Source: Candidatus Krumholzibacteriota bacterium
GTDB taxonomy: Bacteria; Krumholzibacteriota; Krumholzibacteriia; LZORAL124-64-63
Length of the DNA stretch: 18,232 nucleotides
Reading direction: 5' to 3'
Assembly (NCBI GenBank): GCA_039714075.1
Contig: JBDLKA010000075.1
Location: 1-18,232 of the forward strand
Shown here: positions 1-15,586 of the stretch, in pieces
Layout: each line of letters opens with the position of its first letter
Numbering within the stretch: position 1 is the stretch's first letter
Position numbers and translations under genes: made by a program
Notes under the pieces: generated by a model
Told to the model about the DNA's origin: nothing
Databases searched by the model: none
What the model saw: the letters and a program-made list of their open reading frames with translations, nothing else

Positions 1-560
1 TGGATGCCGATCCCACCGGCCCCGATGCAAACTGCCAGATCACCGGCGGCCAGTCCCGAGCTGCGCACCGACTGGAAGGGCGTGGTGATGGCGTCGGCAA
101 CCACCGACAGCTCCCACAACTCGTGCTTGGCCATGACCGCTTCAGGCACCGGGCACACGTATCGGGAGGGCACCGTCACATGGGTGGCGAATCCTCCGTG
201 GCGATCGTTGCCGGGCATGACCTGGGCCGGGCAGATGCGCCCCTGACCACCCTGGCATAACTCGCACTCGCCGCAGGGCATGACCGCGGGCACGAGCACG
301 GCCTGGCCAAGCAGGGTCTCGTCCACGCGGTCGCCCAGTTTGACGACCTTGCCGCTGATCTCGTGACCCAAAGCCAGGGGCAGCGGCGCCCGGGTGGGAA
401 CGCCCATGTGAAGGAAAGAGATATCGGTATGGCACACGCCGCAGCCGGCGACTTCGACGACCACTTCGCCGGCCGGCGGAGTGGCCAGGGTCTCGGTGAC
501 GGATTCGCAGGGCTGGCCCTGGGCCGTCATGACCCAACGGGTGACTTGCAATTCACTCAT
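1..560 (-). CDS. had: 6-hydroxycyclohex-1-ene-1-carbonyl-CoA dehydrogenase (Zn-dependent MDR family); 3' end outside window
   Basis: Not in the ORF track because it runs off the edge. Manual translation from ATG 560 gives MSELQVTRWVMT...VAGCGVCHTD...LPLALGHEISG...PAVMPCGECELC...ICPAQVMPGND..GGFATHV...VVADAITTPFQ...IGAGGIG. Catalytic and structural Zn motifs and Had-like segments are present. ATGA overlap with the upstream stop (557-559); dch/oah context. Confidence 0.88.
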   Translation of the reverse strand, partial: MSELQVTRWVMTAQGQPCESVTETLATPPAGEVVVEVAGCGVCHTDISFLHMGVPTRAPLPLALGHEISGKVVKLGDRVDETLLGQAVLVPAVMPCGECELCQGGQGRICPAQVMPGNDRHGGFATHVTVPSRYVCPVPEAVMAKHELWELSVVADAITTPFQSVRSSGLAAGDLAVCIGAGGIGI

Positions 561-1369
561 CGGTTCTCTCCTATCTGGCTGAGGGGATGGTTCTGTTCCT
601 GGAAAACCCACAGCGCGGCTCCCACGGCCCCGGCCAGGATGGGTTGGGGAATGGCTTCGACATGGTTTCCGGTCTTGTTCGCGATGGCCGTCAGCACGCC
701 GGGGAAGTATTCGGCCACCCCGCCGGTCACGAAGACCGGATCGGTGAAGCGCCCGATCTCGATGACGCGGTCGGCGATGGAGTTGATGCAGCCGAGGGCC
801 ACCGATTCCCGCGAAACACCTTCACGCAGTTTTTCCAGGATGTCCTGCCCGGAGAACATGCTGCAGTAGCTGCCCACCTCGCAGGACTCGTCGGTACGGC
901 CGGCCATTTCCTGCAGATGACTGGGGTGCACGTCGAGATGGCGGGCGGCGAAGATCAAAAACGTACCGATGCCCGCGGCGCAGCGGCGCAGGGTCTGGAT
1001 TCCCGTGGGCCGGCCCTGGTCGTCGACCTGGATCGCCTTGGGGTCGCGGCCGCCGATATCGATGACGCACATGGCCTTTTGATGATGGTGGAACGCGCCC
1101 AGGGCGTGGCAGGCCGCATCACCCAGAAAGGTCGAGGCCATGGGCACGCAGTTTTCGGCGAAACCCGTGGCGCAGATGCCGGCCAGGTCACCTTCGCTCA
1201 CTTGGGCGTCGTCCAGGGCGATGGGAAAAGCTTCACTCACCCGGTCCTGGAAATAACCCCTGCGGGCCACGATGGAGTTGCCCAGCAGGACACCCTGGTC
1301 GTTGACCACGGCTACCTTGATGCACTCGGTGCCCACGTCTATACCCACGCTGATTTTCGGCTCTGACAT
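557..1369 (-). CDS. BadF/BadG/BcrA/BcrD-family ATPase (acyl-CoA dehydratase activase / class I benzoyl-CoA reductase ATPase-type subunit), divergent
   Basis: Motifs GIDVG, ATG, CHALG, IDIGG.D.K, CAAG.G.FL, second Cys in SYCSMF, TGGVA and GAVGAAL. GGAG-type RBS upstream. Confidence 0.85.
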   Translation of the reverse strand: MSEPKISVGIDVGTECIKVAVVNDQGVLLGNSIVARRGYFQDRVSEAFPIALDDAQVSEGDLAGICATGFAENCVPMASTFLGDAACHALGAFHHHQKAMCVIDIGGRDPKAIQVDDQGRPTGIQTLRRCAAGIGTFLIFAARHLDVHPSHLQEMAGRTDESCEVGSYCSMFSGQDILEKLREGVSRESVALGCINSIADRVIEIGRFTDPVFVTGGVAEYFPGVLTAIANKTGNHVEAIPQPILAGAVGAALWVFQEQNHPLSQIGENR

Positions 1370-1377
1370 GGGTCCTC

Positions 1378-3696
1378 CTATCCTTTTGCCCTGGATTCTC
1401 CGGCCCCGGCGGCCAGTTCCTGGATCTCGATGAAGTCGCGCAGTTTCTGCATCACCTGGTTCATGGAGAACAGGCGCAGGTCATGGGTGTCGCCTTCGAG
1501 GACCAGCGCCTTCAACCCGGTGCGACGACCGAGGCGGACTTCCAGACCGTAGCGGACATTGCTTTGGGAAGGCGTCGTGCGTCCTTCGTGGTAGATGACT
1601 CCGTCCACGCCGAAGTCGTTGAAGGCGGTCACCAGGTGATCTTCCTTCCAGGCGTCGGAGCGGTTGTGGAAGATGCCCGTGTAGACCCCCGCCATGCTCT
1701 CGATGGGGTTCTTGGGGTCGATGCCGGGCAGGGCGGCGATGCTGCAGTAGGTCGACCCCACCACGGCCACCTTGTGGTTCAGGAACAGGTCGGCCAAGGG
1801 TCGCAGGGCCGGCCAGATGGGCGGTCCTTCCCAGTAGAAGCGGAACCGTTCACCCGGCACCGCGGCCATTCCGTTGGCCACCCGGTCCTGCACCTCGGCC
1901 TTGAGCAGGGTGTAGTATTCCACCGCTTCGGGTGTGCCGCGCATGATGATCGCCGGCGCCAGGTGGATCAGGGTGTCGAAGAAGGTCAACGGCGAGGGGA
2001 CCTGGCGGCACAATTCAAGGATCTCTCCCCACAAACGGTTGCACTTGTTGGACAGGCGGACCACCTCGGCCAGCTTGTCGTAGTCCAGTTTGCGGTCGAA
2101 GTGTTTCTCCAGGTTTTCCACCATCTGCAGAATCTGCAGGGTGGCCGCGCCCACTTCCAGCTCGCCGACTTCGTTCAGCGAGGTGGAGGGATGCAAACCC
2201 AGCACGGGTTTGTCGAAGTGCCTTCCGTAGTATTCGAACCAGCGGATCAGCTCGTTGCCGTAGTTGGTATTGTAGGCCAGGACATCCGGCGGCGGGGGAC
2301 CTTCGATGTCGTGCACCGACACCAGGGGGCTGTCCCCTTCGAGCATGGCGCCGATATCGCTGGCCATGGCGCTGTTGGCGAACTGGGAGAACCCTTCCTG
2401 CAGGGCGCGGGGGATATACAGGCCCGATTGCCGGCTGGCTCCGATCAGGGCCGCGTGGTTCTCGGGAAAATAGACCGCCAGGCCCAGGGCGCGCAGGATT
2501 TCCACGGGCCCGGTGCCCGAACACCAGGCCACCGGTCGGGCGGGGTCGTTTCTGGCTTCTTGAAGATCACGGTAATACCCCGTGATCAGCTTCTTCAGCT
2601 TGGGCGCGGTTTCCAGGGGCACGCGGCTGTCGGGCATGCCGCCGCCGGGCGCCGGACGAATGGGCCGCAGGGCCTGGGCCGAACGCTTCTGCGGCGCGGC
2701 TCCGGGAGCCCCGTTTTCATCCCCGTTCCGGGCGGCCGCTCGCAGGGTCGCCGCCACCTCCTGCTTGCGCAGGAAGCTCACGTTTTCCCGCGAGTGGATG
2801 AAGTTGACCAGACCGCGGTTGTGGGGCGCGTCCAGACCCAGTTTTTCCGCTTCGCGCACCACCGCGCCGTTGATCGCGTCGACTTCGGTGCGGTAGGAGC
2901 GCGCCAGATCCTGCCACATACTGGGCCGGTTCTTGCCCAGGGCCTTCTGCGAGCCGACAACCGGCCGGTAGGGGTCCTCTTCATCGACGATGGGCACGCC
3001 GCGCGCCTTCATCACCGCGATGATCTCCATGCACAGATCCCGCATGAAATCCTGCAGATGGGGATCGTCCAGAAGTTCGCGGCAGGTCAGGCCCGTCAGG
3101 GCGGAGACGGGATTGACCACGGCGTTGTGCAGCAGCTTTTGCCAGATCACGTTGTCGATCTGTTCCGCTACTTCGGTGTTCAGGCCCGCTTTACGGAACA
3201 CCTCGCCCACCGCCAGGATCTCCGGGGTGACCTTGCCGTCGTAGGGGGCGATCTGGATCGGCTTGATGCCCGGCCGGTAGCGGATCCGGTTCGGTCCGAC
3301 GTGCTGGATGCTGTGGTAGGTGATTCCGCTCAGCACCTGGCGCGGTTCGATGATCTCGGCCATGGTGTCGGTGTTGCCGATGCCGTTCTGCATGGACAGG
3401 ACGAAGGTGTCCGGCCCGATCACGGGCAGGCAGGCGCGCAGGGCGGGTTCGGTCTGGTAGGTCTTCACCGAGACGAAAACCAGGTCGGCCACGGGCAGTC
3501 CCTCGACGCTGGTGGCCACTTTCACCGGCACGCAGGTCTCGCCCTTGTTGCCTTCGGCCACGAAAAGGCCCGTTTCGTTCAGAAGCTGGGTGCGGGCCTC
3601 GTTGATCTCGATGAGAGTGACGTCTTCGCCGCCGGCGGCCAGCTGCGCACCGACCAGTCCGCCCAGAGCCCCGGCGCCGACAATGACGATCTTCAT
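1378..3696 (-). CDS. Fusion protein: N-terminal ketopantoate reductase (PanE/ApbA) domain, Pro/Ala/Gly linker, C-terminal 2-hydroxyacyl-CoA dehydratase/benzoyl-CoA reductase subunit-like (HGD-D) domain
   Basis: N-half has GAGALG, VKTYQ, QNGIG, WQKLLHNAVVNP, SMWQD and TEVDAING. C-half has AWCSG..P.EILRALG..VYFPENH, PDVL, R.YWEGPPIW, DGVIYH and LEGD..D.R. ATG 3696 preferred (GGAG RBS, ATGA overlap with dch stop) over the track start at 3708. Confidence 0.85.
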   Translation of the reverse strand: MKIVIVGAGALGGLVGAQLAAGGEDVTLIEINEARTQLLNETGLFVAEGNKGETCVPVKVATSVEGLPVADLVFVSVKTYQTEPALRACLPVIGPDTFVLSMQNGIGNTDTMAEIIEPRQVLSGITYHSIQHVGPNRIRYRPGIKPIQIAPYDGKVTPEILAVGEVFRKAGLNTEVAEQIDNVIWQKLLHNAVVNPVSALTGLTCRELLDDPHLQDFMRDLCMEIIAVMKARGVPIVDEEDPYRPVVGSQKALGKNRPSMWQDLARSYRTEVDAINGAVVREAEKLGLDAPHNRGLVNFIHSRENVSFLRKQEVAATLRAAARNGDENGAPGAAPQKRSAQALRPIRPAPGGGMPDSRVPLETAPKLKKLITGYYRDLQEARNDPARPVAWCSGTGPVEILRALGLAVYFPENHAALIGASRQSGLYIPRALQEGFSQFANSAMASDIGAMLEGDSPLVSVHDIEGPPPPDVLAYNTNYGNELIRWFEYYGRHFDKPVLGLHPSTSLNEVGELEVGAATLQILQMVENLEKHFDRKLDYDKLAEVVRLSNKCNRLWGEILELCRQVPSPLTFFDTLIHLAPAIIMRGTPEAVEYYTLLKAEVQDRVANGMAAVPGERFRFYWEGPPIWPALRPLADLFLNHKVAVVGSTYCSIAALPGIDPKNPIESMAGVYTGIFHNRSDAWKEDHLVTAFNDFGVDGVIYHEGRTTPSQSNVRYGLEVRLGRRTGLKALVLEGDTHDLRLFSMNQVMQKLRDFIEIQELAAGAGESRAKG

Positions 3697-4448
3697 GCGT
3701 TTCTCCATTCGGGAGCGCGTTTGCCGTAGAAGGCTTCGATGCCTTCGACCGGATCGGCGGAGGTCATCAGATCCTCCAGGAAGACCTTTTCGGCCTGCTC
3801 CAGCCGGGCGGCGAAGTTGCCGGGCCGGCTCGCCTTGAGGGTCCGCGTGTTCAGGCGCAGGACCAGGGGGCTGGCGGCGCGGAAATCGTTCAGGGTGTTT
3901 TCCAGGGTGTCGTTCAGTTCCTCGGCCGCGACCACCCTGCTGACCAGGCCCATGTCGGCCATCTCGGCGGCGGTGTAGGGCCGGCCCGAGCAGGTGATTT
4001 CCATGGCCCGGGCGCGTCCCACCAGGTCCGGCAGCACGACCACGCCCACGGGCGCGAAAAATCCCAGGCGGATTTCCGGCTGGCCGAACTTGGCCTTCTC
4101 CGCGGCCAGCAGCACGTCCGCCATCAGGATGAGCTCGAACCCGGCGCCCATGGCCGCGCCGCCCACAGCCATCACCACGGGCACTTCCAGGGCGTCCAGT
4201 TTGCGGAACAGGCGGCCGAAGGATTCGATCATATCGGCGGCCTGTTCGGGGCGGTGTTCGCCCACGTCGGCGCCGGCGCAGAAGGCCTTGCCTTCGGCGG
4301 TGACGGCCACGGCCTTGATGCTGCCGTCGCCGGCCACGGTTTCCAGCAGCCCGCTCATGTGGTCCATCACCGCGGCGGACATGATGTTCACCGGGGGATT
4401 GTTCAGGTGGAGATAGGCGACATCGTTTTCCACGCGGTAATCGATCAT
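3693..4448 (-). CDS. dch: Cyclohexa-1,5-diene-1-carbonyl-CoA hydratase (crotonase family)
   Basis: LNNPPVN, FCAGADVGEH, GAGFEL and FGQPEIRLGFFAP (Dch-like). Start ATG 4448 has an AGGAG RBS and ATGA overlap; pathway context. Confidence 0.78.
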   Translation of the reverse strand: MIDYRVENDVAYLHLNNPPVNIMSAAVMDHMSGLLETVAGDGSIKAVAVTAEGKAFCAGADVGEHRPEQAADMIESFGRLFRKLDALEVPVVMAVGGAAMGAGFELILMADVLLAAEKAKFGQPEIRLGFFAPVGVVVLPDLVGRARAMEITCSGRPYTAAEMADMGLVSRVVAAEELNDTLENTLNDFRAASPLVLRLNTRTLKASRPGNFAARLEQAEKVFLEDLMTSADPVEGIEAFYGKRAPEWRNA

Positions 4449-4909
4449 GTTGATTCTCCTGATTCGGGGCCGGTTTTCACCCAGGTGGTGCCGGGTTTTT
4501 CCAGTGTGTAATGGACCTTGATGTCCGGGGATTCCTCGCACAGGCGGGGCACCACCTGCACGGGCATGTCGATGGTGATTCCGTCCGGTGCGATCGTGTC
4601 GCCGAAGCCGGCCAGCAAACGCCCGCCTTCTTCCAGGTCGACCACGCCCAGATTGAAGGGCGCCTCTTTCTCGAATCCGGCCGGAGCGGCGTCGATGGTG
4701 GTGAAGGTCATCAGGGTGCCCCTGCCGCTCATTTCGGTGAACGCGAACTCACCCTGGAGGCAGGCCGGGCAGTCGGCGCGGGGCGGAAAACTCAGGTGAC
4801 CGCAGGCGGTGCAGGTCGAACCCATCAGGCGTCCGGCCCTCAGGTGGGCGGCGAAACCGTCAACCTTGGTGTGAGGGCAAAAATTTACTTTTCCAAACCA
4901 TTCGAACAC
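4445..4909 (-). CDS. DUF35 Zn-ribbon/OB-fold protein (thiolase partner)
   Basis: CTACG..FPPR..CPAC zinc ribbon followed by OB-fold segments (G.L.TFT, VDLEEG.R). Directly downstream of the thiolase; GTG start. Confidence 0.88.
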   Translation of the reverse strand: MFEWFGKVNFCPHTKVDGFAAHLRAGRLMGSTCTACGHLSFPPRADCPACLQGEFAFTEMSGRGTLMTFTTIDAAPAGFEKEAPFNLGVVDLEEGGRLLAGFGDTIAPDGITIDMPVQVVPRLCEESPDIKVHYTLEKPGTTWVKTGPESGEST

Positions 4910-4913
4910 GGCG

Positions 4914-6074
4914 TCAATCCTTTTTGAAGACGTTCACGAAACAGTACTGGCCGATACCGCCCACATTGTGGGTCAGGCCGACGTCGGCGTCCGGCACCTG
5001 TCTGGCCTCGCCGGCTTCACCGCGCAGTTGGCGCACCATTTCGCAGGCCATGGAAACGCCGGTGGCCCCGACCGGATGGCCTTTGGCTTTGAGCCCGCCG
5101 TCCACGTTCACGGGGGTCGCGCCCCCGATGTACGATTGCTTCTCCGCCACGAAAGCCCCGCCTTCGCCCTTCCCGCAAAAACCCAGGTCTTCGTAGGCCA
5201 TGATCTCGGCGATGGTGAAGCAGTCGTGCACTTCAGCAACCTTCACGTCACCAGCCGAAATGCCGGCCATTTTGTAGGCCTGGGCCGCCGCTTCTCTGGC
5301 TGAAGGCAAACCTGTCAATTCGGGGCGGCGCAATACGGACATGCTCGCCGTCGCGCAGCCGTTGCCATCGAGCCACACTTCCCTGCCCGCGCCCAGCTTG
5401 CGCGCGGCGCGTTCCCCGGCCAGGATGACACAGGCCGCGCCGTCGGCGTTGGCGCAGCAGTCGTAGACCGTCAACGGGGCGGCGACCGGATCCGAGGCCA
5501 GCGCCTTGGCCGTGGTGATTTCCTTCTGGAAGAGCGCCTTGGTGTTGCGGGCGCCGTAGTGGTGGTTCTTGACCGCGACCTGGGCCAGGTGTTCGTTCGT
5601 GGTGCCGAACTCGTGCATGTGGCGCCGGGCGAACATGGCGTAGTAGCCGGGGAAGGTGGTTCCGAAACCCGATTCCCACTGAACGTCGCCGACGCGCCCC
5701 ATCAGGGCCAGGATCTCGGCGGTTTCCAGTTCGGTCATCTTCTGGCAGCCGATCACCGCCACCACGTCGTGCACCCCGGCCTTGATGGACAGCCAGGCGG
5801 TGCGGATCGCCGCCGAGCCCGAGGCGCAGGCGACCTCGGTCAGCCAGGTCGGTTTGGGGTTCAGATTGAGGTATTCCTGGATGACTCCGGCCAGCGAACG
5901 CTGCTTGTGGTATTCGGGTACCGAGCCGATCACGGTGGCCTCGATGACGTCCGGGTCCAGGTCGCCGTCTTTCAGGGCGGCCCGGTAAGCCTCGAAGGCG
6001 AGCTCCTGCACCGTGGCGTCGCTGCGCCGTCCGAAAACCGTATGGCCGATGCCGACAATGCCGACTCTGCTCAT
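4914..6074 (-). CDS. SCP2-type thiolase (acyl-CoA C-acyltransferase)
   Basis: ACASGS catalytic Cys, EVHDCF, N.DGGL..KGHP.GATG and HNVGG. ATG 6074 with GAGG RBS. Confidence 0.9.
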   Translation of the reverse strand: MSRVGIVGIGHTVFGRRSDATVQELAFEAYRAALKDGDLDPDVIEATVIGSVPEYHKQRSLAGVIQEYLNLNPKPTWLTEVACASGSAAIRTAWLSIKAGVHDVVAVIGCQKMTELETAEILALMGRVGDVQWESGFGTTFPGYYAMFARRHMHEFGTTNEHLAQVAVKNHHYGARNTKALFQKEITTAKALASDPVAAPLTVYDCCANADGAACVILAGERAARKLGAGREVWLDGNGCATASMSVLRRPELTGLPSAREAAAQAYKMAGISAGDVKVAEVHDCFTIAEIMAYEDLGFCGKGEGGAFVAEKQSYIGGATPVNVDGGLKAKGHPVGATGVSMACEMVRQLRGEAGEARQVPDADVGLTHNVGGIGQYCFVNVFKKD

Positions 6075-6083
6075 GAACACCTC

Positions 6084-6851
6084 TTAAATGTATTGACCAC
6101 CATCGACGCGGATCACCTGCCCGGTCACGTGCCGGGAGAAATCCGAACACAGGAAAGCCACCACATGGGCGATGTCCGCCGGGTCGGCCAGGCGGCCCAG
6201 CATGGATTCGCGCACGGCGGCGTTGCGGAACTCGGGCGCCAGTCCGGCGGCCATTTCGGTGGCCACCATGCCCGGGGCCACGGCGTTGACCGTGACGTCG
6301 AACTTGCCCAGCTCGCGGGCCAGGGTCCGGGTCAGGGCGTTCACCCCGCCCTTGGCCGCGGTGTAGTTGGCCTGGCCGAACTTGCCCCGTTCCCCGTTGA
6401 TCGAGGAGATATTGACGATGCGGCCGCGCCGCTGGTCCTTGAACAGCCGGGCCGCCGCGCGGTTGAAGGTGAAGTAGCCGGTCAGGTTCACCGCCAGGAC
6501 ATCGTCCCAGGCCTTGTCCGACATGTTCCACACCACGGCGTCGCGGGTGATGCCCGCGTTGCAGACCAGCATGTCCAGACCGCCCAGCTCGGCCACGGTG
6601 CGGGTCACGGCATCCTCGGTGGCAGCCGAATCAGCCGCATCGGCTTCCAGCGGCAGGGCCCGCCGGCCCAGTTTCTCGATGGCGCCCACGGTTTCGTCCG
6701 CCTCGCCGGGTTCGCCCACATAGGTCAGGGCCACATCGCAGCCCTGCCGCGCCAGTTCCCGGCAAACCGCGGCGCCGATGCCCCGGCTGCCGCCCGTCAC
6801 CAGGGCGACCCGGTCGTTCAAGCCCAGTTGCAGGTCCGCATTCCGCGCCAT
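6084..6851 (-). CDS. Short-chain dehydrogenase/reductase (FabG/PhaB-like 3-hydroxyacyl-CoA dehydrogenase)
   Basis: TGGSRGIG, NAGITRD, ISS, YTAAK (YxxxK), VNAVAPG and TGQVIRVDGG. Confidence 0.9.
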   Translation of the reverse strand: MARNADLQLGLNDRVALVTGGSRGIGAAVCRELARQGCDVALTYVGEPGEADETVGAIEKLGRRALPLEADAADSAATEDAVTRTVAELGGLDMLVCNAGITRDAVVWNMSDKAWDDVLAVNLTGYFTFNRAAARLFKDQRRGRIVNISSINGERGKFGQANYTAAKGGVNALTRTLARELGKFDVTVNAVAPGMVATEMAAGLAPEFRNAAVRESMLGRLADPADIAHVVAFLCSDFSRHVTGQVIRVDGGQYI

Positions 6852-6854
6852 CGC

Positions 6855-7496
6855 CTACCGCCCTTCTCCGGTCAGTCCGTTCATGACCATGGCCACCATT
6901 TCCTCGCCCAGTTCTCCGGCGTGATCGTCCTTGGCGGGGTCGTACCACATGAACACCCAGTTCAGCATGCCGAAGATGAACAGGGTGCGATGCCGGACCT
7001 GCCGGTCGGTTTCCGCCCGCTCGGCGGGTACCCCGCTCATTTCGCCGACCACCTGGGCCATGCACAGGTAATAGCGCCGCCTGAGCTGGGCGATGTTCTC
7101 GTATCTTTCCCCTTGCAGTGATTCCAGTTCGAAGGTGCAGACCTTCAGCTCGTTGAAGTGGCTGATGAAGTAGGCGAGATGGTTCTTCACCAACCGGCGC
7201 AGGCGTTCTTCGGCCGGGCCGCCGCCGGCCACGGCCTGTTCCTGCATTTCCAACAACGAACCGAAGGTCTTTTCCTGGATCAGGAAGAGCAGGTCTTCCT
7301 TGCTCTTGAAGTAGTAGTACATGCCGCCCAGGCTGAAGCCGCTGGCGGTGGCCACGTCGCGAATGGAGGTCTGGCTGAAACCGCGCGTGGCCATCAGTTC
7401 GGCCGAGACGGTCAGCAACCGGTCCAGCTTGGGGGCCGTGCGCGAAGTCCGGCCGCCGCTCGGGACGGGGATGTCATGGGGAGCGCCCTCAGCCAC
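6855..7496 (-). CDS. TetR/AcrR family transcriptional regulator (KstR2/PaaR-like C-terminal domain)
   Basis: HTH GFSQTSIRDVA...GGMYYYFKSKEDLL and C-terminal GMLNWVFMWY. GTG start overlaps the upstream stop. Confidence 0.9.
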   Translation of the reverse strand: MAEGAPHDIPVPSGGRTSRTAPKLDRLLTVSAELMATRGFSQTSIRDVATASGFSLGGMYYYFKSKEDLLFLIQEKTFGSLLEMQEQAVAGGGPAEERLRRLVKNHLAYFISHFNELKVCTFELESLQGERYENIAQLRRRYYLCMAQVVGEMSGVPAERAETDRQVRHRTLFIFGMLNWVFMWYDPAKDDHAGELGEEMVAMVMNGLTGEGR

Positions 7497-10329
7497 GTTT
7501 TTCTTCCTTCTGTCTCTTCAAACCGGCCAGGATCTTTTCCGGGGTGATGGGCAGTTCGGTGACGCGCACCCCGCAGGCGTCGTAGATGGCGTTGCCGATG
7601 GCGCCGAGGATGGGCGGCAGGCAGCCCTCGCCGATTTCCTTGGCCCCGAACGGACCCCGCGGTTCGTAACTTTCGACGGCCTTGGAAATGATGTGCGGCG
7701 ACTCGGCAATCGTCGGCACCAGATAGCCGTGCAGATCCGGATTGACCAGCGACCCGTCCGGCCGGACCAGGGTGTCCTCCATCAGCGTTTCACCCAGGCC
7801 CATGATGATGCCGCCCTCGACCTGGCCGTGGAAGGTCACGGGATTGATCACGGTGCCGGAATCGCTGAAGTCGTAGAACCTGTCCACGTCGACGTACCCT
7901 GTTTCCAGGTCGACGGTGACCTCGCACACGGCGGTGGAAAAGCTGTAGGCGGGCGAGGTGCCCACCGCGGCTCCCTTGTAATTGCCGCCCAGGCCCGGCG
8001 GCGGCGAGTAGTGGCCGGTGCCCGTCACGGGTCCGCCGCGGGAGAAGACCTTCCGCGCGACTTCATCCCAGGCGATTTCCACCTCGGGGTGCTGGGAGAC
8101 GAAGATCTTTCCGTCCCGCGCTTCCAGCCCGTGGACATCGCAGCCCAGCATTTCGCCGGCCATCTTCAACAGCTGGGATTTCACCTCGGCCGCGGCCATG
8201 CGCACGGCGTTGCCGGCCATCAGCGTCACGCGGCTGGAATATGACCCCAGGTCCGTGGGCGCGAGCACCGAATCGCTTTCCACCAGCCAGATCCGGTGGT
8301 AGGGGATGCCCAGTTCTTCGGCCGCGATCTGGGGCAGGATGGTGTTGCAGCCCTGTCCGATTTCCGCCGCGGCGATGTGCAGCGAGGCGGCCATGCCGTC
8401 TTCGGACAAACGGATCAGGGCGTTGGAGTGCGGGAATTTCGAACGGTAGATGGGATAACCCGCGCCCGACACGAACCCTCCGCAGCCCACGCCGATGCCC
8501 TTGCCCTCGGGCAGTGATTTCCGCTTGGCGTCCCACTCGGTGAACTCGCGCGCCTGCTCCAGGGTGGCCGTGAACTCGCACGACGAGATGTCCAGGTCGT
8601 TGCAGGTCAGGGTGTCCGGCTGCATGGCGTTCTTCAGCCGCACGTCGAAGGGATCCAGGCCCAGCTTCTCGGCCGCCATGTCCATCAGCGTCTCGAAGGC
8701 GTAACGCGGCTGGGGCACGCCGTGGCCGCGCATGGCTCCGCTGGCCGGCAGGTTCGTGTACATGCGGAAGCCGTCGTATTTGTAGTTGGGAATGTTGTAC
8801 AGGGTCGGCACCATGGAACCGGCGTAGTAGGCGGTCACGATCCCGTACGAAGTGTAGGCGCCGCCGTCGAGCAGGATGTGACTCTGGCAGGCGGCGATGG
8901 AGCCGTCCTTCTTCAGCCCCAGCTTCATGTCGATGTACTGTTTGTGGCGGCCGCGGAAGTGGTGGACCATTTCCTCGCGGGAGTACTTCATCATCACCGG
9001 ACGGCCGGTCAGGCGGGCGAAGACCACCGCGCACAGATCCAGCGGCGTGGCCTCGGCCTTGACCCCGAAACCGCCGCCCACGCAGGGGCTGATGGTGCGG
9101 ATGTCGCCCTGGGGAATGTCGAACACCCGGTTGAGCATGTGCCGCAGATAATGGGGCGCCATGGAGGAGGACCAGATGGTCAGCTTGCCCGCGTGGTGTT
9201 CCCAGCGCGCGACCGCGGCGTGGGGTTCGATGGGGGACTGGAACGGCCGGTTGCCGATGAAGGTGTCCTCGACGATGACCTCGGCCTCGTCGAAGCCCTG
9301 GTCCACGTCGCCGAAGTGCCATTCAACGCGGGTGTTGATGTTGTTGGCGTACTTCTCTTCCTCGGGATGGATCTGCGGCGCGCCGTCCTTGATGGCCTCG
9401 CGTGGATCGAAAACCGCCGGCAGTTCTTCGTACTCGACCTTGATCAGCTTGACGGCCTCTTCGGCGGTGGTTTCGTCCTCGGCCACCACGGCCGCGACCT
9501 CGTCGCCGACATACCGCACGCGATCGACGGCCAGGATGTGCTCGTCGTACCGGGCGGGCGAGACCCCGTACTTAATTTCGGGCACATCCTTGGCCGTGAT
9601 GACCGCCAGCACGCCGGGCAGGGCCTCGGCGGCGCTGGTGTCGATGCTCTTTATCAGTCCGTGGGCGATGGTGCTGCCCAGCAACTTGCCGTGGACCATG
9701 TCCGGCAGTTTCAGGTCGGCGGTGTACTGCTCGCGGCCGGTGACCTTGTCCGGACCGTCATAGCGGGTTACGCCCTTGCCCACGACGCTGTGGTCGCGTT
9801 CCTGGTCGCGCTCGTCGTGTTCGCCGGGATCGGTATCCAGCTCGACGCCTTCGAATTTTTGCCAGTTGCCCACCGCTTCCATGACGCGCGGATAGGTGCC
9901 GCAGCGGCACAGGTTGCCGCCCAGGGCCTTCTTGATCTCGGCGGGCTCGGGCTTTGGGTTCTTCTCGATCAGTTCCAGGCTGGAAATGATCATGCCGGGG
10001 GTGCAAAAACCGCATTGCAGGGCGCCGTGCTTGATGAAGCTCTTCTGCAACGGATGCAGGTCGTTGCCGTCGGCCACGCCCTCGATAGTTTTGATCTCGG
10101 CCCCGTCGCAGGTGGCGGCCAGCACCAGGCACGAATTGACGGCCTTGCCGTTCATCAGCACGCTGCAGGCCCCGCAGTCGCCCACGTCGCAGCCGCTCTT
10201 GGTGCCGGTCAGCCCCAGATCTTCGCGGATGACCTGTTTGAGGGTGGCCTCCGGCGGCACGGCCAGCATGTGGCGCCGTTCGTTCACGGTGATGGTGATC
10301 ATTACGGCTTGTTCGTTCCGGCGGCCCAT
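7489..10329 (-). CDS. Xanthine-oxidase-family molybdoenzyme, fused 2x[2Fe-2S] and molybdopterin-binding subunit; 4-hydroxybenzoyl-CoA reductase gamma+alpha-like
   Basis: N-terminal GTKSGCDVGDCGAC...NSC and QCGFCTPG...NLCRC. Mo domain has GGGFG, GGAY.SYG, YTN.P..GAMRGHG, FVSG, IGQG.NT, D.GSYSSRVT.M.GNA and GPFGAKEIGEG, resembling recalled HcrA. Start 10329 by TGATG overlap (10302 also possible). Confidence 0.8.
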   Translation of the reverse strand: MGRRNEQAVMITITVNERRHMLAVPPEATLKQVIREDLGLTGTKSGCDVGDCGACSVLMNGKAVNSCLVLAATCDGAEIKTIEGVADGNDLHPLQKSFIKHGALQCGFCTPGMIISSLELIEKNPKPEPAEIKKALGGNLCRCGTYPRVMEAVGNWQKFEGVELDTDPGEHDERDQERDHSVVGKGVTRYDGPDKVTGREQYTADLKLPDMVHGKLLGSTIAHGLIKSIDTSAAEALPGVLAVITAKDVPEIKYGVSPARYDEHILAVDRVRYVGDEVAAVVAEDETTAEEAVKLIKVEYEELPAVFDPREAIKDGAPQIHPEEEKYANNINTRVEWHFGDVDQGFDEAEVIVEDTFIGNRPFQSPIEPHAAVARWEHHAGKLTIWSSSMAPHYLRHMLNRVFDIPQGDIRTISPCVGGGFGVKAEATPLDLCAVVFARLTGRPVMMKYSREEMVHHFRGRHKQYIDMKLGLKKDGSIAACQSHILLDGGAYTSYGIVTAYYAGSMVPTLYNIPNYKYDGFRMYTNLPASGAMRGHGVPQPRYAFETLMDMAAEKLGLDPFDVRLKNAMQPDTLTCNDLDISSCEFTATLEQAREFTEWDAKRKSLPEGKGIGVGCGGFVSGAGYPIYRSKFPHSNALIRLSEDGMAASLHIAAAEIGQGCNTILPQIAAEELGIPYHRIWLVESDSVLAPTDLGSYSSRVTLMAGNAVRMAAAEVKSQLLKMAGEMLGCDVHGLEARDGKIFVSQHPEVEIAWDEVARKVFSRGGPVTGTGHYSPPPGLGGNYKGAAVGTSPAYSFSTAVCEVTVDLETGYVDVDRFYDFSDSGTVINPVTFHGQVEGGIIMGLGETLMEDTLVRPDGSLVNPDLHGYLVPTIAESPHIISKAVESYEPRGPFGAKEIGEGCLPPILGAIGNAIYDACGVRVTELPITPEKILAGLKRQKEEKRG

Positions 10330-11204
10330 CAGCACTTCCCTTCCGCACGTTCGCACGCCTGCGTCAGCGCGCGGGCGGTCAACACCTGGACCACGTCGCG
10401 GCGGTACTGTTCGCTGCCGCGCAGGTCGGAGATCGGTTGCGCCTCGGCGGCGGCCTGGGCGCCGGCTTCGGCAAAGAGTTCGTCGCCGGGGTTTTTTCCA
10501 GCCAGCAGGTCGGCGGCTTTTGTGGCCGACAAGGGGACAGGTCCCACCGAACCGAGATAGATGCGGGCTTCGGCGATGATCCGGTCTTCCATGCGGACCC
10601 AGGCGGCGACCGAGGCCACGGCCAGCGCGGAACCCCGCCGCAGGGAAAAGCGCTGGAAACTGGCGCCGGCTCCTGTCGGCTGTTTGGGAAAGCGGATCTC
10701 GGTAAGGATCTCGCCGGGATTGAGCACCGTCACCCGCGGGGCGAGCACGAACTCACGGGCGGCCACGGTGCGGCTGCCGTCGGTTCCGGTGAGCACGACT
10801 TCGGCGTCGGCGGCGCAGGAAATGGGCGGGGTATCCGAACAGGGCACGCCGCAGCAGAAATTCCCGCCCATGGTGCCCAGATTGCGGATCTGGCGGCCGG
10901 CCATGGTCTCGATCGCGTCGCTCAGGGCGGGGAAATGGGATTTCACTTCAGCGGACTCGGCGATCTCGCTCAAGGGCACCAGCGCCCCGATGCGCAGCAC
11001 ATCCTCTTCCCTGGTGATGTGTTTCAGTTCGTCCAATCCCCCCAGGGAGATCACGTGGCACACGGACTTGCGGCCCGAGCGCAGATCCACCAGCAATTCG
11101 GTCCCACCGGCCAGATAGGCCGATTTGCGGCCGTATTCGAGGCCCAGGGCGCAAGCTTCGGCGGTGGTCGAGGGCTGATGATAGTTGAAACGACCAAAAG
11201 ACAT
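10329..11204 (-). CDS. FAD-binding subunit (CoxM/XdhB/HcrB-like) of the molybdoenzyme
   Basis: LAGGTEL, LRIGAL, QIRNLGTMGGN, PGEIL.EI and PISDLRGSEQYRR. First gene of the operon. Confidence 0.9.
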   Translation of the reverse strand: MSFGRFNYHQPSTTAEACALGLEYGRKSAYLAGGTELLVDLRSGRKSVCHVISLGGLDELKHITREEDVLRIGALVPLSEIAESAEVKSHFPALSDAIETMAGRQIRNLGTMGGNFCCGVPCSDTPPISCAADAEVVLTGTDGSRTVAAREFVLAPRVTVLNPGEILTEIRFPKQPTGAGASFQRFSLRRGSALAVASVAAWVRMEDRIIAEARIYLGSVGPVPLSATKAADLLAGKNPGDELFAEAGAQAAAEAQPISDLRGSEQYRRDVVQVLTARALTQACERAEGKC

Positions 11205-11386: not shown

Positions 11387-11415
11387 TTGCCTTTTTCGCT
11401 AAATTTTCGTATATT
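11387..11415 (+). promoter_or_regulatory. Sigma70-type promoter of the HNH gene
   Basis: TTGCCT (11387-11392), 17 nt, TATATT (11410-11415), in an AT-rich island 40 nt before ATG 11456. Confidence 0.6.
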
Positions 11416-11455
11416 GATTTCACCTCCCAAAGGACCCATTTCCAAGGATGGAATC

Positions 11456-12942: not shown

Positions 12943-14076
12943 CTACGCTTTCTTCGGCTTCGGCAGCACGGCGGCGAACAGCTCGTCGTCCATCATTGCC
13001 CCGGCCGCGATCAGCTGCCGGTACTGGATGAAGTCGATGGTGTCGATGCCGGTCATCTTGCGGCTGTTGAACGCGGTGAAGCCCAGGAAGGCCTCGCCGG
13101 TCATGTTCGCGGCCAGCCAGTGGCGGTTGGCGAGCTTGGTCTGGTCCCAGAAGAACTTCTTCTTGGCCCGGATGCCGTCGATGGACTTGATCAGGCAACC
13201 GGGGAACAGATTGGCGAACCGCCAGACGATCCTGTCGATCTCCGCGTCCAGACCACTGAAGTCGACCTCGCCGGATTTGAGAACTTCGCGAGCCGCGCGC
13301 CCGTCATCGCCGGTCTTCATGTCGCCGTAGACGATGTCGCCGCCGGCGACGTAATCCTCGGTGACCACGCCGGGGTTGCGCACGATGTCGCCGCCGACCC
13401 GGAGCACGGGCACCGCGGCGGTGATCAGGCCCTTGAGCTTCATCTTGTAGGACGACCACATCTCGCACGAGATGCAGTTCCACATGGCGTCCTCGGTGGG
13501 CAGCATCCAGGGCAGAAAGTCGGTGCTGCCGCCGTCGGGAGCCGAACCGTGTTTGGGGCCGGCCTGGCCGAAGATGGCCAGATCCGACGATACGGTCAGG
13601 TCGCAGGCCATGCCGATTTCCTGTCCGCCGGCGATGCGCATGCCGTTCACACGGCAGATGGTCGGCTTCTTGCAGCCCAGGATGCCGTCGACCATGGCGT
13701 TGAACAGGTCCATGTACTCGCCGTATTCGTTGGGCCGGCGGCTGTAGTACTCGGCGTACTCCTTGGTATTGCCGCCGGTGCAGAAGGCCTTGTCGCCCGC
13801 GCCGGTGAAGATCACCGCGACCACCGACCGGTCCGACGAGGCGGCCTGGAAACCGGCGATCACGCCCTTGACCATCTCGGTGGTGTAGGAGTTGTACTGG
13901 GCGGGGTTGTTCAGGGTGATCCAGGCGGTGAAAAGGCCGTCGACAACCTTGCCGTCCGCGTCGGTCACCGGACGTTTTTCATAAACCGTGCACGGGGCCT
14001 CGGTGCCCCAGTGCTCGGTGCCGAAAAGGGCGTGGTTCTTGATCTCGTCGTCGCGGGGCAACCATTCCAGTGACAT
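12943..14076 (-). CDS. oah: 6-oxocyclohex-1-ene-1-carbonyl-CoA hydrolase (Oah/BamA/BzdY)
   Basis: NNPAQYNSYTT.MVKGVI, FCTGGNTKEYAEYY, RVNGMRI.GGQEIGMACD, FGQAGPKHGSAP.GG.TDFLP and WLA.NM.GEA.LGF.AFN, all hallmark BamA/Oah segments. Confidence 0.95.
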   Translation of the reverse strand: MSLEWLPRDDEIKNHALFGTEHWGTEAPCTVYEKRPVTDADGKVVDGLFTAWITLNNPAQYNSYTTEMVKGVIAGFQAASSDRSVVAVIFTGAGDKAFCTGGNTKEYAEYYSRRPNEYGEYMDLFNAMVDGILGCKKPTICRVNGMRIAGGQEIGMACDLTVSSDLAIFGQAGPKHGSAPDGGSTDFLPWMLPTEDAMWNCISCEMWSSYKMKLKGLITAAVPVLRVGGDIVRNPGVVTEDYVAGGDIVYGDMKTGDDGRAAREVLKSGEVDFSGLDAEIDRIVWRFANLFPGCLIKSIDGIRAKKKFFWDQTKLANRHWLAANMTGEAFLGFTAFNSRKMTGIDTIDFIQYRQLIAAGAMMDDELFAAVLPKPKKA

Positions 14077-14108
14077 GGGACCGTCTCCTTAAAGGCTGAA
14101 GTCGAAAA

Positions 14109-15275: not shown

Positions 15276-15339
15276 GCATCCTGACCTTGTTGGAATTGCG
15301 GAAGAATTAACTCCCAAGGTGTTTTTTTGGCCAAGGCGC

Positions 15340-15368
15340 ACCATATCGGGTTTGGGAGGGGATTGCAA
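15340..15368 (-). promoter_or_regulatory. Sigma70-type promoter of gcdH-oah
   Basis: Minus strand TTGCAA (15368-15363), 17 nt, TATGGT (15345-15340). Confidence 0.55.
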
Positions 15369-15586
15369 GGGGGCGAGGCGGCTCCCTGAGGCAGCGGAAG
15401 GCATATCAGGCAAAAACATCAAATTCAGGATAAATCCTATCTTAAATCAGGATATTCTCTACCAAAGAAGTTCTATTTATGTTATGGTGTACCAAATGAT
15501 CTTTAATCAGGCCGCTTTATGGCGCTATTAAGCGGTCTGGGTCGAAATATGGGGAATCTCTGGTAATCAAATTGGAGGGGATCAAA

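Follow-up and report, generated by a model that had tools for sequence, protein, structure and literature searches.

A ketoacid reductase fused to a cluster-less HGD-D domain

The gene FUS in the window (18,232 nt from Candidatus Krumholzibacteriota, positions 1 to 18,232 of contig JBDLKA010000075.1, assembly GCA_039714075.1) was predicted to encode an intact PanE-type NAD(P)H ketoacid reductase, flexibly tethered to a HadB/BzdO-type domain termed HGD-D*. Judged from its residues, HGD-D* would be unable to bind the [4Fe-4S] cluster of its family, and the same would hold throughout the orthologue family. FUS is most likely a docking partner of a cluster-bearing sister subunit, HGD2, in a pathway that leads into the anaerobic breakdown of aromatics.

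FUS (1378..3708, minus strand) was an open ORF of 776 aa, in which a PanE/ApbA reductase was followed by a linker and the cluster-less HGD-D domain. Translation probably begins at the second ATG (3696; 772 aa), where start codon and stop of the upstream gene overlap as ATGA; the consensus N-terminus of the family was MRIVIVGAG. Pfam placed ApbA at residues 7-157, ApbA_C at 184-307 and HGD-D at 401-762 (E 2.4e-46), the last with 159.3 bits against a PF06050 gathering score of 28.4.

The PanE/ApbA ketoacid-reductase domain (residues 7-307; 2788..3690, minus strand) was recognised by Pfam, TIGR00745 and PDB matches. It scored 256.4 bits with TIGR00745 (cut-off 141.35), matched the KPR structure 3hwr (E 5e-38) and kept the glycine-rich loop VGAGALGG. 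N108, K191, S263, D267 and E275 were invariant among 68 sequences; the Asn/Lys/Ser/Glu set corresponds to Asn98, Lys176, Ser244 and Glu256 of E. coli KPR. Score, GxGxxG motif and catalytic-type residues thus placed the domain in the TIGR00745 subfamily, and its fold was that of D-mandelate dehydrogenase (TM 0.81-0.84). All NCBIfam equivalogs for true PanE were missed (best NF005091, 179.2 vs 252), indicating that ketopantoate is probably not the substrate.

The linker (residues 311-395; 2524..2778, minus strand) was characterised by AF2 pLDDT and dN/dS. Residues 317-360 had pLDDT <50 and were predicted to be disordered; the linker was also the fastest-evolving segment of FUS (dN/dS 0.09-0.6), and a conserved GGMPxxRVPL segment closed it. 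HGD-D* (residues 401-762; 1423..2508, minus strand) was assigned the HadB/BzdO fold without the [4Fe-4S] ligands by Pfam, phmmer and Foldseek, the last superposing it on HadB with a TM of 0.93-0.94 and an rmsd of 1.9 A. The AlphaFold model of FUS (pLDDT 85, pTM 0.57) had no fixed contact between PanE and HGD-D.

Loss of the three cluster cysteines

In phmmer searches against the PDB, HGD-D* matched HadB (3o3m_A, E 2.1e-38), MbdO (9g87_A, 1.3e-18) and BzdO (8s02_A, 2.2e-9). The HadB and MbdO alignments placed a Cys opposite each of N445 (codon 2374..2376, minus strand), G484 (2257..2259, minus strand) and T712 (1573..1575, minus strand), which replace the first, second and third ligand, respectively. 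The BzdO alignment, weak in its second stretch, set Cys128 opposite G484 and Cys380 opposite T712. The available text of PMC11971306 names Cys95, Cys128 and Cys380 as the BzdO ligands, with coordination in HadB alike. An earlier note on this DNA had proposed the loss of all three cysteines from consensus motifs, and the alignments bore this out. Its codons agreed exactly with the ORF computation, and its consensus motifs recurred almost letter for letter in HGD2 of the same genome (SPDICSYLTSD, NTNQCRD and HDAKTCPN).

The orthologue set comprised 115 full-length fused proteins of 59-92% identity, six shorter ones among 121 having been omitted. Column 445 held S in 72, N in 35, C in 5, H in 2 and P in 1; column 484 was G in 114 and S in 1; and column 712 was A in 63, S in 25, T in 20, C in 6 and E in 1. 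The three-Cys triad occurred in none of the 115. The frame, described beforehand as intact with well-kept flanks, was indeed so, the flanks SQFA-x-SAM, NTN-x-G and EGRT-x-P..S being almost invariant among the 115. The remaining cysteines of the domain were considered as a replacement site, but C396 (84/115), C556 (49/115), C567 (50/115) and C655 (69/115) were poorly conserved, ruling out a family-wide replacement.

HGD-D* thus did not have the three-Cys [4Fe-4S] with open fourth site that characterises catalytic subunits of the HadB/BcrB/BzdO type, and it fell below the NCBIfam equivalog cut-offs for HadB (169.2 vs 750), BcrB (116.9 vs 486.55) and BzdO (46.5 vs 448.6). The electron-relay models NF052456, TIGR02263 and TIGR03190, whose ligand Cys were likewise absent, gave no match at E <=1e-5; the real BcrC of the same genome did match them.

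Selection and distribution of the family

In close pairs (dS 0.45-0.72), w was 0.069-0.126 for HGD-D* and 0.086-0.106 for the PanE domain; only pairs with dS below about 0.75 are quoted because dS was near or beyond saturation in more distant ones. HGD-D* is under strong purifying selection (about 0.07-0.13), comparable to that on the reductase domain, and the dN/dS check suggested in the earlier note thus gave no sign of relaxed selection. Targeted, family-wide ligand loss (0/115 triads) in a kept fold (TM 0.93), together with purifying selection, argues for repurposing rather than decay, as had been inferred from the single sequence.

The 115 full-length orthologues fell under at least six phylum-level labels, including Krumholzibacteriota, Eisenbacteria, Acidobacteriota, Gemmatimonadota and Myxococcota, which are uncultured soil and sediment phyla. 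Their current annotation labels, '2-dehydropantoate 2-reductase' or 'BcrC/BadD/HgdB', are mislabels.

Forty short relatives (181-422 aa, at least 53% identity) were all cluster-less in pattern, and many began at a conserved internal Met. At all 8 metagenome loci nearest the short protein P0141, an uninterrupted frame shared with PanE extended upstream, showing that the short forms there are gene-call or contig-end truncations; unfused cluster-less forms were rejected for these loci. A short frame in genome G018 was likewise rejected as an unfused form, being cut by the contig end. Seventeen metagenome loci (of 43) were examined, and all 17 had PanE in frame, HGD-D* and ATPase1.

The cluster-bearing paralogue HGD2 and the two ATPases

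HGD2, a paralogue of HGD-D* with 38-44% identity, was found outside the window on contig C4 of the same genome. Its best PDB match was HadB (E 1.6e-49), and all three ligand Cys were kept, being invariant in 43/43 orthologues. With the HadB, BcrB and BzdO models HGD2 scored 225, 153 and 80 bits, and HGD-D* 169, 117 and 46.5; neither matched the HadC, BcrC or BzdN models. At the position of BzdO His131 the alignment read Val in HGD2 and Leu in FUS.

ATPase1 (557..1369, minus strand) was identified by Pfam and by likeness to HgdC (1hux) as a BcrAD/HgdC-type activase of 270 aa with the bridging-cluster cysteines C130 and C169. Both Cys aligned with HgdC (E 1.4e-31) and were kept in 69/69 orthologues; the TIGR00241 score was 144 bits (cut-off 125.4). 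ATPase1 lay directly downstream of FUS at 68/68 loci; FUS is thus adjoined by an ATPase of the HgdC/BcrAD type that carries two Cys in each monomer. A second activase, ATPase2, adjoined HGD2 and kept both cluster Cys in 41/41.

At 62 loci the downstream sequence extended to 2.4 kb or more; HGD2 directly followed ATPase1 in 35 of these and was present anywhere in the locus in 43. The directly downstream position was the arrangement in most other phyla. Five genomes were checked for the 19 loci without it, and in all five an orthologue of HGD2 (70-87% identity) was located at another site. The FUS/ATPase1 and HGD2/ATPase2 pairs occupied separate operons in the window's own lineage. In a phylum sample of 201 genomes, FUS occurred in 27, and HGD2 in 25 of these; it was not found in G133 (91% complete) and G129 (96%). 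FUS was absent from 5 of the 30 HGD2-bearing sample genomes, three of them single-contig, in which HGD2 was the sole PF06050 gene, showing that the pairing of HGD2 with FUS is not obligatory. In the tree, HGD2 of the FUS-less genomes nested within the HGD2 clade. The closed FUS-less genome G084 had one HGD-D gene and one activase; its HGD2 was surrounded by molybdate uptake genes and MoeA, which gave no substrate hint. G046, G053 and G098 had exactly two HGD-D genes (FUS and HGD2) and two activases. These copy numbers are what co-duplication, from a homodimer:homodimer to an asymmetric system, would leave. Rooting the FUS/HGD2 split with a BcrB/BcrC outgroup gave branches of 5.7 and 10 changes per column, which are overlong, and the tree is therefore silent on the order of events.

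The FUS:HGD2 complex was modelled with an ipSAE of 0.86 (0.85-0.86 in three runs), and the best of three controls reached 0.00; the mark used was passed by 116/157 solved complexes and 2/215 mismatched pairs. Contacts agreed by at least 94% between runs, and the partner pLDDT was 91. This score may stem from likeness to the solved HadBC and BzdNO dimers. The modelled FUS interface comprised residues 438-444, 481-493, 506-528, 684-686, 708-724 and 736, and it flanks 445, 484 and 712. The flanks of the lost cysteines would thus belong to the dimer interface, which would explain their conservation. Of 142 invariant or near-invariant HGD2 positions, 75 were identical in FUS, and the cluster neighbours Y94, Q130, R132, D136, N303-W305, E325 and N362, invariant or nearly so in HGD2, were variable in FUS.

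Neighbouring genes and pathway context

All neighbouring genes described here are on the minus strand. Downstream of ATPase1, a Zn-alcohol dehydrogenase of the Had (6-hydroxycyclohex-1-ene-1-carbonyl-CoA dehydrogenase) type (3..560) was cut by the window end; its present half scored 232 bits with TIGR03201, and its ATG overlapped the ATPase1 stop (ATGA). Profile matches identified an enoyl-CoA hydratase, ECH1 (3693..4541), for which a dienoyl-CoA hydratase model was the second-best match, below cut-off; a DUF35/OB-fold protein with an SCP-x-type thiolase, a BbsA/BbsB-like pair (4445..6080); an SDR of the 3-oxoacyl reductase/dehydrogenase type with a TetR regulator (6084..7496); and a xanthine-dehydrogenase-family Mo enzyme with a fused 2Fe-2S and MoCo subunit and an FAD subunit (7489..11204). 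The fused subunit resembled the alpha subunit of 4-hydroxybenzoyl-CoA reductase (904 bits vs a cut-off of 994.55). An Oah/BamA ring hydrolase, above its TIGR03200 cut-off (574.6 vs 464.45 bits), and an acyl-CoA dehydrogenase lay at 12943..15422.

Oah over cut-off was present in 25/27 FUS genomes, compared with 23/174 others. A CoA ligase always adjoined the system, ADP-forming in this genome and AMP-forming at locus L047. Through the surrounding Hcr-like, Oah and Had genes the system is linked with benzoyl-CoA metabolism, and it is this gene context that suggests both the substrate and the type of reaction, dehydration or reduction. BcrCBAD was encoded elsewhere in the same genome, and four BcrB-less FUS genomes had one AOR-family gene each, possibly a class II BCR. 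FUS/HGD2 is therefore not needed as the only benzoyl-CoA reductase of the cell, and that role was rejected as unnecessary.

Proposed function and alternative explanations

On balance, the evidence leans towards HGD-D* being a cluster-less scaffold partner (alpha*) of HGD2 in a four-protein system, the pathway below included. HGD-D* would pair with HGD2 through the usual HGD-D dimer interface, ATPase1 and ATPase2 would join into an ATP-driven electron injector, a heterodimer like that of class I benzoyl-CoA reductases, and radical chemistry would occur at the HGD2 cluster only, with HGD-D* keeping the PanE reductase within the complex. Co-occurrence, synteny and the complex score, the last from a model only, point to such a heterodimer, set against the solitary occurrence of HGD2. 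Less surely, PanE would convert a 2-oxo acid to an (R)-2-hydroxy acid, the co-located CoA ligase would activate it, and HGD2/alpha* would dehydrate it to an enoyl-CoA; ECH1, the SDR and the thiolase/DUF35 pair would then shorten the side chain to (4-hydroxy)benzoyl-CoA, which the Hcr-like Mo enzyme, then BcrCBAD, Had and Oah would process. Aryl-pyruvates and aryl-lactates from Phe and Tyr would fit best, also less surely. Against this reading stand the HGD2-bearing genomes without FUS, the separate operons of the two pairs in the window's lineage, the two FUS genomes in which HGD2 was not found, the possible origin of the complex score in likeness to solved dimers, and the following. The partner subunit's cluster takes up and parks the electron in canonical dehydratases, according to the available text of PMC8473912, so that a one-cluster dimer departs from the known mechanism. 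Also, with a CoA-ligase step between the PanE and dehydratase steps, the fusion joins non-consecutive reactions. Of the two ideas in the earlier note, that of a scaffold docking onto the real reductase is the one favoured by the HGD2 co-occurrence, the synteny and the complex model; the partner would be the Cys-bearing paralogue outside the window and not BCR itself.

The same four proteins could instead form an ATP-dependent BCR-like reductase for substituted (e.g., hydroxylated) benzoyl-CoA, with PanE using NAD(P)H to reduce the ring product in its keto-tautomer form. Two ATPases and two HGD-D genes between a Dch-like hydratase and Had mimic bcr/bzd clusters, distinct ATPase subunits with MbdQ/MbdP matches follow the BCR pattern, the association with Oah is strong, and G070 and G037 combine true Oah and Had with HGD2 as their sole HGD-D gene. 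However, HadB was the best-scoring of the three models (HadB, BcrB and BzdO) for both HGD2 and HGD-D*, Val replaces the catalytic His131 of BzdO in HGD2, the window's genome has a full BcrCBAD, FUS genomes lacking BcrB hold an AOR-family gene, and G084 and G034 have HGD2 without Oah or Had over cut-off; such a reductase is unlikely. It is rather unlikely that the complex is an asymmetric single-cluster BCR/HAD member, in which one-electron chemistry, fed from the ATPase pair to the HGD2 [4Fe-4S], and hydride chemistry with NAD(P)H at PanE would act on one CoA substrate and the vacated HGD-D* pocket would be a second acyl-CoA site handing over the intermediate; for example, a hydroxylated aryl-CoA would be reduced in its ring or side chain and then undergo ketoreduction without release.

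The idea that HGD-D* is a free-standing pseudo-enzyme, which would use the former substrate channel to bind an acyl-CoA or CoA and control PanE allosterically, was also raised in the earlier note and is unsupported, though not refuted. HGD-D* retains the fold and many channel-domain residues that it has in common with HGD2 (W560, F577, D578, R590, Y598/Y599), it is under purifying selection, and an archaeal KPR crystallised with CoA (5ayv) was among the top structural matches of PanE. It is nonetheless very unlikely, since the linker is disordered and the model predicts no contact with PanE, the former cluster surroundings consist of residues turned variable, the best-conserved surface is the predicted dimer interface, and neither the invariably adjacent, cluster-competent ATPase1 nor the dependence on HGD2 is explained. 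Equally improbable is a separate machine of FUS and ATPase1 homodimers with no electron transfer to FUS, acting as an extra HGD2 activator or in ATP-driven non-redox handling of CoA esters. An own ATPase after each HGD-D gene, the different operons of the two pairs in the window's lineage and the self-sufficiency of HGD2 with ATPase2 elsewhere would suit it; against it, ATPase1 keeps its redox cluster yet would find no acceptor in FUS, FUS lacks HGD2 in only 2/27 genomes, and the heterodimer model passes. The missing cysteines alone would suggest a decaying remnant or an annotation or assembly artefact, which is refuted by the open frame, the 115 full-length orthologues across phyla, the low dN/dS and the confident model.

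ATP-driven radical chemistry at very low potential has its textbook example in the BCR/HAD enzymes, and to our knowledge all described members have Fe-S clusters in both core subunits. A core subunit that lacks the cluster, yet is conserved, strongly selected and joined to a hydride-transfer enzyme, would demonstrate that the second cluster is dispensable, and FUS/HGD2 would provide a natural one-cluster variant. Engineered BzdNO Cys-to-Ala variants were too unstable for study, as stated in the available text of PMC11971306. Tied as it is to the benzoyl-CoA pathway, FUS is probably a marker of an as yet undescribed peripheral route by which carbon from aromatics or amino acids is turned over anaerobically.

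Comparison with known systems

HadBC with HadI of Clostridioides difficile (3o3m/3o3n) matched HGD-D* best in both sequence and fold and was also the best PDB match of HGD2, and it shares with the FUS locus an adjoining HgdC/HadI-type ATPase with cluster Cys. Clostridial dehydratase pathways also include a dedicated reductase forming the (R)-2-hydroxyacid. The HadB equivalog cut-off was, however, missed widely (169 and 225 vs 750 bits), two different ATPases are present here, and a CoA ligase replaces the CoA-transferase. The available text of PMC8473912 describes canonical dehydratases as alpha/beta heterodimers with one three-Cys [4Fe-4S] per subunit and a homodimeric activator, whereas both subunits here are alpha-type paralogues, one of them cluster-less with a fused PanE.

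Like BcrCBAD, BzdNOPQ and MbdONPQ, the system comprises a pair of HGD-D genes and a pair of distinct BcrAD ATPase genes, four in all. The three-Cys [4Fe-4S] of the catalytic subunit in class I BCR (BzdO Cys95/128/380) is also predicted in HGD2, and the neighbourhood with hydratase, Had, Oah and CoA ligase is alike. Unlike class I BCR, it has a cluster-less alpha paralogue in the place of the BzdN/BcrC-type subunit, which would carry an [8Fe-9S] or a second cluster; BzdO His131 is replaced in both subunits, and a genuine BcrCBAD is elsewhere in the genome.

In the double-cubane cluster protein DCCP with its ATPase DCCP-R (6eno, 7yyl), both the HGD-D protein and the activase are homodimers, and HGD2 with ATPase2 in FUS-less genomes likely represents a DCCP-like homodimer state. 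DCCP is called the archetype of the family in the available text of PMC11971306. Six Cys bind its [8Fe-9S]; five Cys are invariant in HGD2, and HGD-D* has none of the ligands. The match of HGD2 to DCCP was weak (E 0.018-0.029; 55.8 bits vs a cut-off of 350).

Members of the PanE/ApbA family (KPR and D-mandelate/D-2-hydroxyacid dehydrogenases; 3hwr, 5ayv, 3wfi, 8wl1) have the same fold as the reductase domain (TM 0.81-0.91). None fused to HGD-D was found in the literature searched, outside which lay most subscription journals. The phenyllactate dehydratase system FldH/FldA/FldBC/FldI of Clostridium sporogenes converts an aryl-pyruvate via the (R)-aryl-lactate and its CoA ester to cinnamoyl-CoA, the same logic as proposed here. 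It is fermentative, its D-2-hydroxyacid dehydrogenase has a different fold, and it employs a CoA-transferase and two subunits that each bear a cluster, whereas the product of the FUS/HGD2 system would be oxidised further to benzoyl-CoA.

Structure of the fusion protein

The fusion gene FUS is a single long ORF with 776 codons open (1378..3708, minus strand; residues are numbered on this 776-aa ORF). Pfam placed a PanE/ApbA ketopantoate-reductase-type region in its N-terminal half (ApbA, residues 7-157; ApbA_C, 184-307) and, past a linker, an HGD-D domain at residues 401-762 (PF06050, E 2.4e-46). The true protein probably has 772 aa, since the second ATG (3696) shares the tetranucleotide ATGA with the stop codon of the hydratase gene upstream and the family consensus begins there as well. 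Two such ATGA start/stop overlaps in the operon, hydratase/FUS (3693-3696) and ATPase1/Had (557-560), point to translational coupling along it. A 748-aa open frame runs antisense to FUS (window 1483-3729, plus strand), and other long antisense frames lie opposite real genes; long antisense open frames are typical of G+C-rich DNA.

The PanE domain is intact. It passed TIGR00745 (256 bits vs 141) and in the profile search scored over no true-PanE equivalog model. Residues N108, K191, S263, D267 and E275, a set linked to the E. coli KPR catalytic residues, were invariant. An AlphaFold2 model of FUS (alignment of 68 sequences) had a mean pLDDT of 85.1. Residues 317-360 fell below a pLDDT of 50 and the pTM was 0.57, indicating that the two domains are predicted to be tethered rather than packed on each other. 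The modelled N-domain matched ketopantoate reductases at TM 0.85-0.91 and D-mandelate dehydrogenases at TM 0.81-0.84, and the C-domain matched HadB at TM 0.93-0.94 (rmsd 1.9 A).

Loss of the cluster cysteines

When all PDB chains were searched with phmmer, the relatives of the C-terminal domain (HGD-D*) were HadB (3o3m_A, E 2.1e-38), MbdO (9g87_A, 1.3e-18) and BzdO (8s02_A, 2.2e-9). The cysteines of HadB and MbdO aligned opposite N445, G484 and T712, whose codons are 2376-2374, 2259-2257 and 1575-1573, exactly where the earlier note had placed the replacement of three ligand cysteines. BzdO Cys128 and Cys380 fell opposite G484 and T712, the second BzdO stretch being weak by itself. PMC11971306 gives Cys95/128/380 and water as ligands of the catalytic [4Fe-4S] cluster in BzdO, with the same coordination in HadB.

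A search of a 5.8-billion-protein collection listed 120 relatives of FUS at 59-92% identity, nearly all PanE+HGD-D. The alignment retained 115 of 121 proteins, each of at least 740 aa; six shorter ones, on 2.1-3.4 kb contigs, were left out. Among these 115 fused orthologues the residues were S72/N35/C5/H2/P1 in column 445, G114/S1 in column 484 and A63/S25/T20/C6/E1 in column 712, and none of the 115 carried the full three-Cys triad. Judged from the alignment, ligand loss is thus a family trait and not peculiar to the window copy. The flanks of the three columns were almost invariant. The other cysteines of the domain, proposed earlier as a possible site, do not form a replacement because they were kept in only 49-84 of 115 proteins. 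The suggested dN/dS check on fused orthologues (Nei-Gojobori, window vs three closest relatives, dS 0.45-0.72) gave 0.069-0.126 for HGD-D*, 0.086-0.106 for the PanE domain and 0.091-0.160 for the linker, so that selection is not relaxed. HGD-D* is a cluster-less domain under selection; it belongs to the HGD-D fold family but lacks the three-Cys cluster that defines catalytic subunits, and it gave no match to relay subunits. A literature search that covered subscription journals thinly turned up no paper describing the fusion or any core subunit without a cluster.

Annotation labels within the family were inconsistent ('2-dehydropantoate 2-reductase', 'BcrC/BadD/HgdB'). Public sets also hold many 'stand-alone' cluster-less domains of ~417-422 aa (P0122-P0161), whose first residue is a conserved internal Met (GGMPxGRVPL). 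These were rejected as real short forms: in the eight loci nearest one such protein (among L093-L102) the PanE frame runs on to the internal Met without a stop, showing that they are gene-calling artefacts.

The activase and a cysteine-bearing paralogue

Directly downstream of FUS lies ATPase1 (557..1369, minus strand), an HgdC/BcrAD-type ATPase. Both cysteines of the HgdC bridging [4Fe-4S] cluster were aligned and present, and they were invariant in 69/69 orthologues. FUS provides no acceptor for this cluster-bearing electron injector, and one was therefore sought elsewhere in the genome. The genome holds four HGD-D genes: FUS, BcrC, BcrB and HGD2. The BcrC/BcrB pair with BcrA/BcrD (484, 678 and 352 bits, over the cut-offs; BcrA 552, just under 578) is a genuine Thauera-type class I benzoyl-CoA reductase (BCR). 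HGD2 is a solo HGD-D protein of 414 aa on another contig, C4 (L088 5414-6658), followed by a second activase gene (ATPase2), an ADP-forming acyl-CoA synthetase and an SSF transporter. It was 38-44% identical to HGD-D* and, among solved structures, again closest to HadB (E 1.6e-49); all three ligand cysteines are present, in exactly the motifs given in the earlier note. Two cluster-competent ATPases and a Cys-bearing paralogue thus accompany FUS.

Five cysteines were invariant in the HGD2 family (43/43 orthologues), namely the ligand triad, C43 and C302, and all five were present in 76 of 80 short database relatives (42-47% identity). The two extra cysteines were partly retained in FUS (C396, 84/115; C655, 69/115), and the first of the two positions is a Cys in MbdO as well. 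Neither HGD2 nor HGD-D* matched the beta/N-type models (HadC, BcrC, BzdN), indicating a system of two alpha-type paralogues, one cluster-bearing and one without a cluster.

Synteny and co-occurrence

The 79 FUS loci from species genomes, all MAGs, were labelled Krumholzibacteriota, Eisenbacteria, Acidobacteriota, Gemmatimonadota, Myxococcota/Anaeromyxobacter and others; FUS of Krumholzibacteriota, probably the window's phylum, was 88-92% identical to the window's. ATPase1 came next after FUS in all 68 loci with enough sequence. HGD2 directly followed ATPase1 in 35/62 loci and lay somewhere in the locus in 43/62; where the retrieved flank showed no HGD2 (19 loci), five genomes were tested and all five had an orthologue elsewhere. 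In one locus (L047) each gene in the series FUS, ATPase1, HGD2, ATPase2, AMP-forming ligase and Had abuts or overlaps the next. Among 43 metagenome loci, 17 were examined and each of the 17 had HGD-D*, ATPase1 and an in-frame PanE.

Across 201 genomes sampled evenly from the phylum (related to each other, and scored by identity and frame length), FUS occurred in 27 genomes, 25 of them with HGD2; the exceptions were G133 (91% complete) and G129 (96% complete). HGD2 occurred without FUS in 5 of 30 HGD2 genomes, three of the five being single-contig, and was the sole PF06050 gene in each of the five. This pattern indicates that FUS depends on HGD2, not the reverse. Copy numbers fit co-duplication of HGD-D and activase genes, with one of each in G084 and exactly two of each in G046, G053 and G098. 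An unrooted tree divided FUS C-domains from HGD2 by a long, well-supported branch, with the FUS-less HGD2 sequences nested within the HGD2 clade.

HGD2, ATPase2, the ADP-forming acyl-CoA synthetase and the SSF transporter make up a four-gene module complete in itself (L090 10091-15820 of G084; L091 of G070), found in genomes with HGD2 as the only HGD-D gene; in G084, ATPase2 is the only activase. This arrangement suggests that the radical enzyme is an alpha2 homodimer, in contrast to the alpha/beta dehydratases described so far. True Oah and Had genes occur in G070 and G037, where HGD2 is the only HGD-D gene.

Predicted docking of the cluster-less domain on HGD2

A complex of HGD2 and FUS residues 390-776, modelled with a separate alignment for each, reached an ipSAE of 0.86 (three runs, 0.85-0.86), and the best of three controls reached 0.00. 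The model passed a mark that was reached by 116/157 solved complexes and 2/215 mismatched pairs; the runs shared at least 94% of contacts and the partner pLDDT was 91. Since solved dimers (HadBC, BzdNO) exist in the family, the pass may reflect mere likeness to them. The modelled FUS interface includes residues 438-444, 481-493 and 708-724; these segments are the flanks of the lost cysteines, and their place in the interface would explain their conservation. Of 142 invariant or near-invariant HGD2 positions, 75 were identical in FUS, and the cluster neighbours (HGD2 Y94, Q130, R132, D136, N303-W305, E325 and N362) were variable in FUS. This conservation pattern points the same way as docking of HGD-D* on HGD2.

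Pathway context and proposed mechanism

The window encodes a true Oah (574.6 bits vs 464.45) and, cut off after its 5' half, a Had-type dehydrogenase that scored 232 bits over the half present. A TetR regulator is encoded too, as are an SDR, a hydratase, an acyl-CoA dehydrogenase and a thiolase paired with a DUF35 protein. The window also encodes a 4-hydroxybenzoyl-CoA-reductase-like (Hcr-like) Mo enzyme of two proteins (7489-11204, minus strand). One, of 955 aa, fuses 2Fe-2S (gamma-like) and MoCo (alpha-like) parts and, at 904 bits, just missed the HcrA cut-off of 994.55; the other, of 291 aa, is the FAD subunit. True HcrB has an extra Fe-S loop. The FAD subunit matched XdhB best and the HcrB model by its N-terminal part only, so it may lack the loop, and the Mo enzyme may not be a reductive dehydroxylase. 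An HNH endonuclease/DUF222 gene (11387-12535, plus strand) lies between the FAD-subunit and Oah genes on the opposite strand; it appears to be a mobile element inserted in the catabolic island, because Oah and FAD genes are adjacent without it in the relatives L012, L025 and L064. A 593-aa ORF (15572-17353, plus strand), also opposite in strand and beside catabolic genes, had weak CarboxypepD_reg and SdrD_B-like matches below gathering scores.

Oah was found in 25/27 FUS genomes vs 23/174 others. BcrB was present in only 13/27 FUS genomes, and four BcrB-less genomes each had one AOR-family gene, possibly a class II BCR, indicating that the FUS system accompanies the benzoyl-CoA pathway regardless of the type of ring reductase, as would suit a peripheral role in feeding that pathway. 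The system always has a CoA ligase beside it, but a non-orthologous one in different phyla: AMP-forming in a Gemmatimonadaceae locus (L047 15091-17106), ADP-forming (an NDP-forming acyl-CoA synthetase) in the genome of the window (L088 2529-4604) and its relatives.

The main alternative to a dehydratase would be a BCR-like enzyme that reduces a substituted benzoyl-CoA and yields a keto product for PanE to reduce in turn. A dehydratase route is preferred because PanE-family enzymes include D-2-hydroxyacid dehydrogenases and HGD2 scored best against HadB; D-mandelate dehydrogenase structures were among the matches of the PanE domain. By the dehydratase route, a 2-oxo acid would be reduced to an (R)-2-hydroxy acid, converted to its CoA ester, dehydrated to an enoyl-CoA and shortened in a beta-oxidation-like manner to (4-hydroxy)benzoyl-CoA. 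From the gene context, the substrates would be aryl-pyruvates and aryl-lactates from Phe/Tyr. FUS:HGD2 with ATPase1:ATPase2 would most likely make up an asymmetric complex in which radical chemistry is confined to the HGD2 cluster and HGD-D* serves as a scaffold bearing the PanE reductase. In the canonical dehydratase (PMC8473912), the cluster of one subunit receives the electron and passes it to the cluster of the other, where the substrate binds; between turnovers the electron is parked back. The proposed FUS:HGD2 pair, which would have the HGD2 cluster only, departs from this scheme, in which both subunits hold a cluster.
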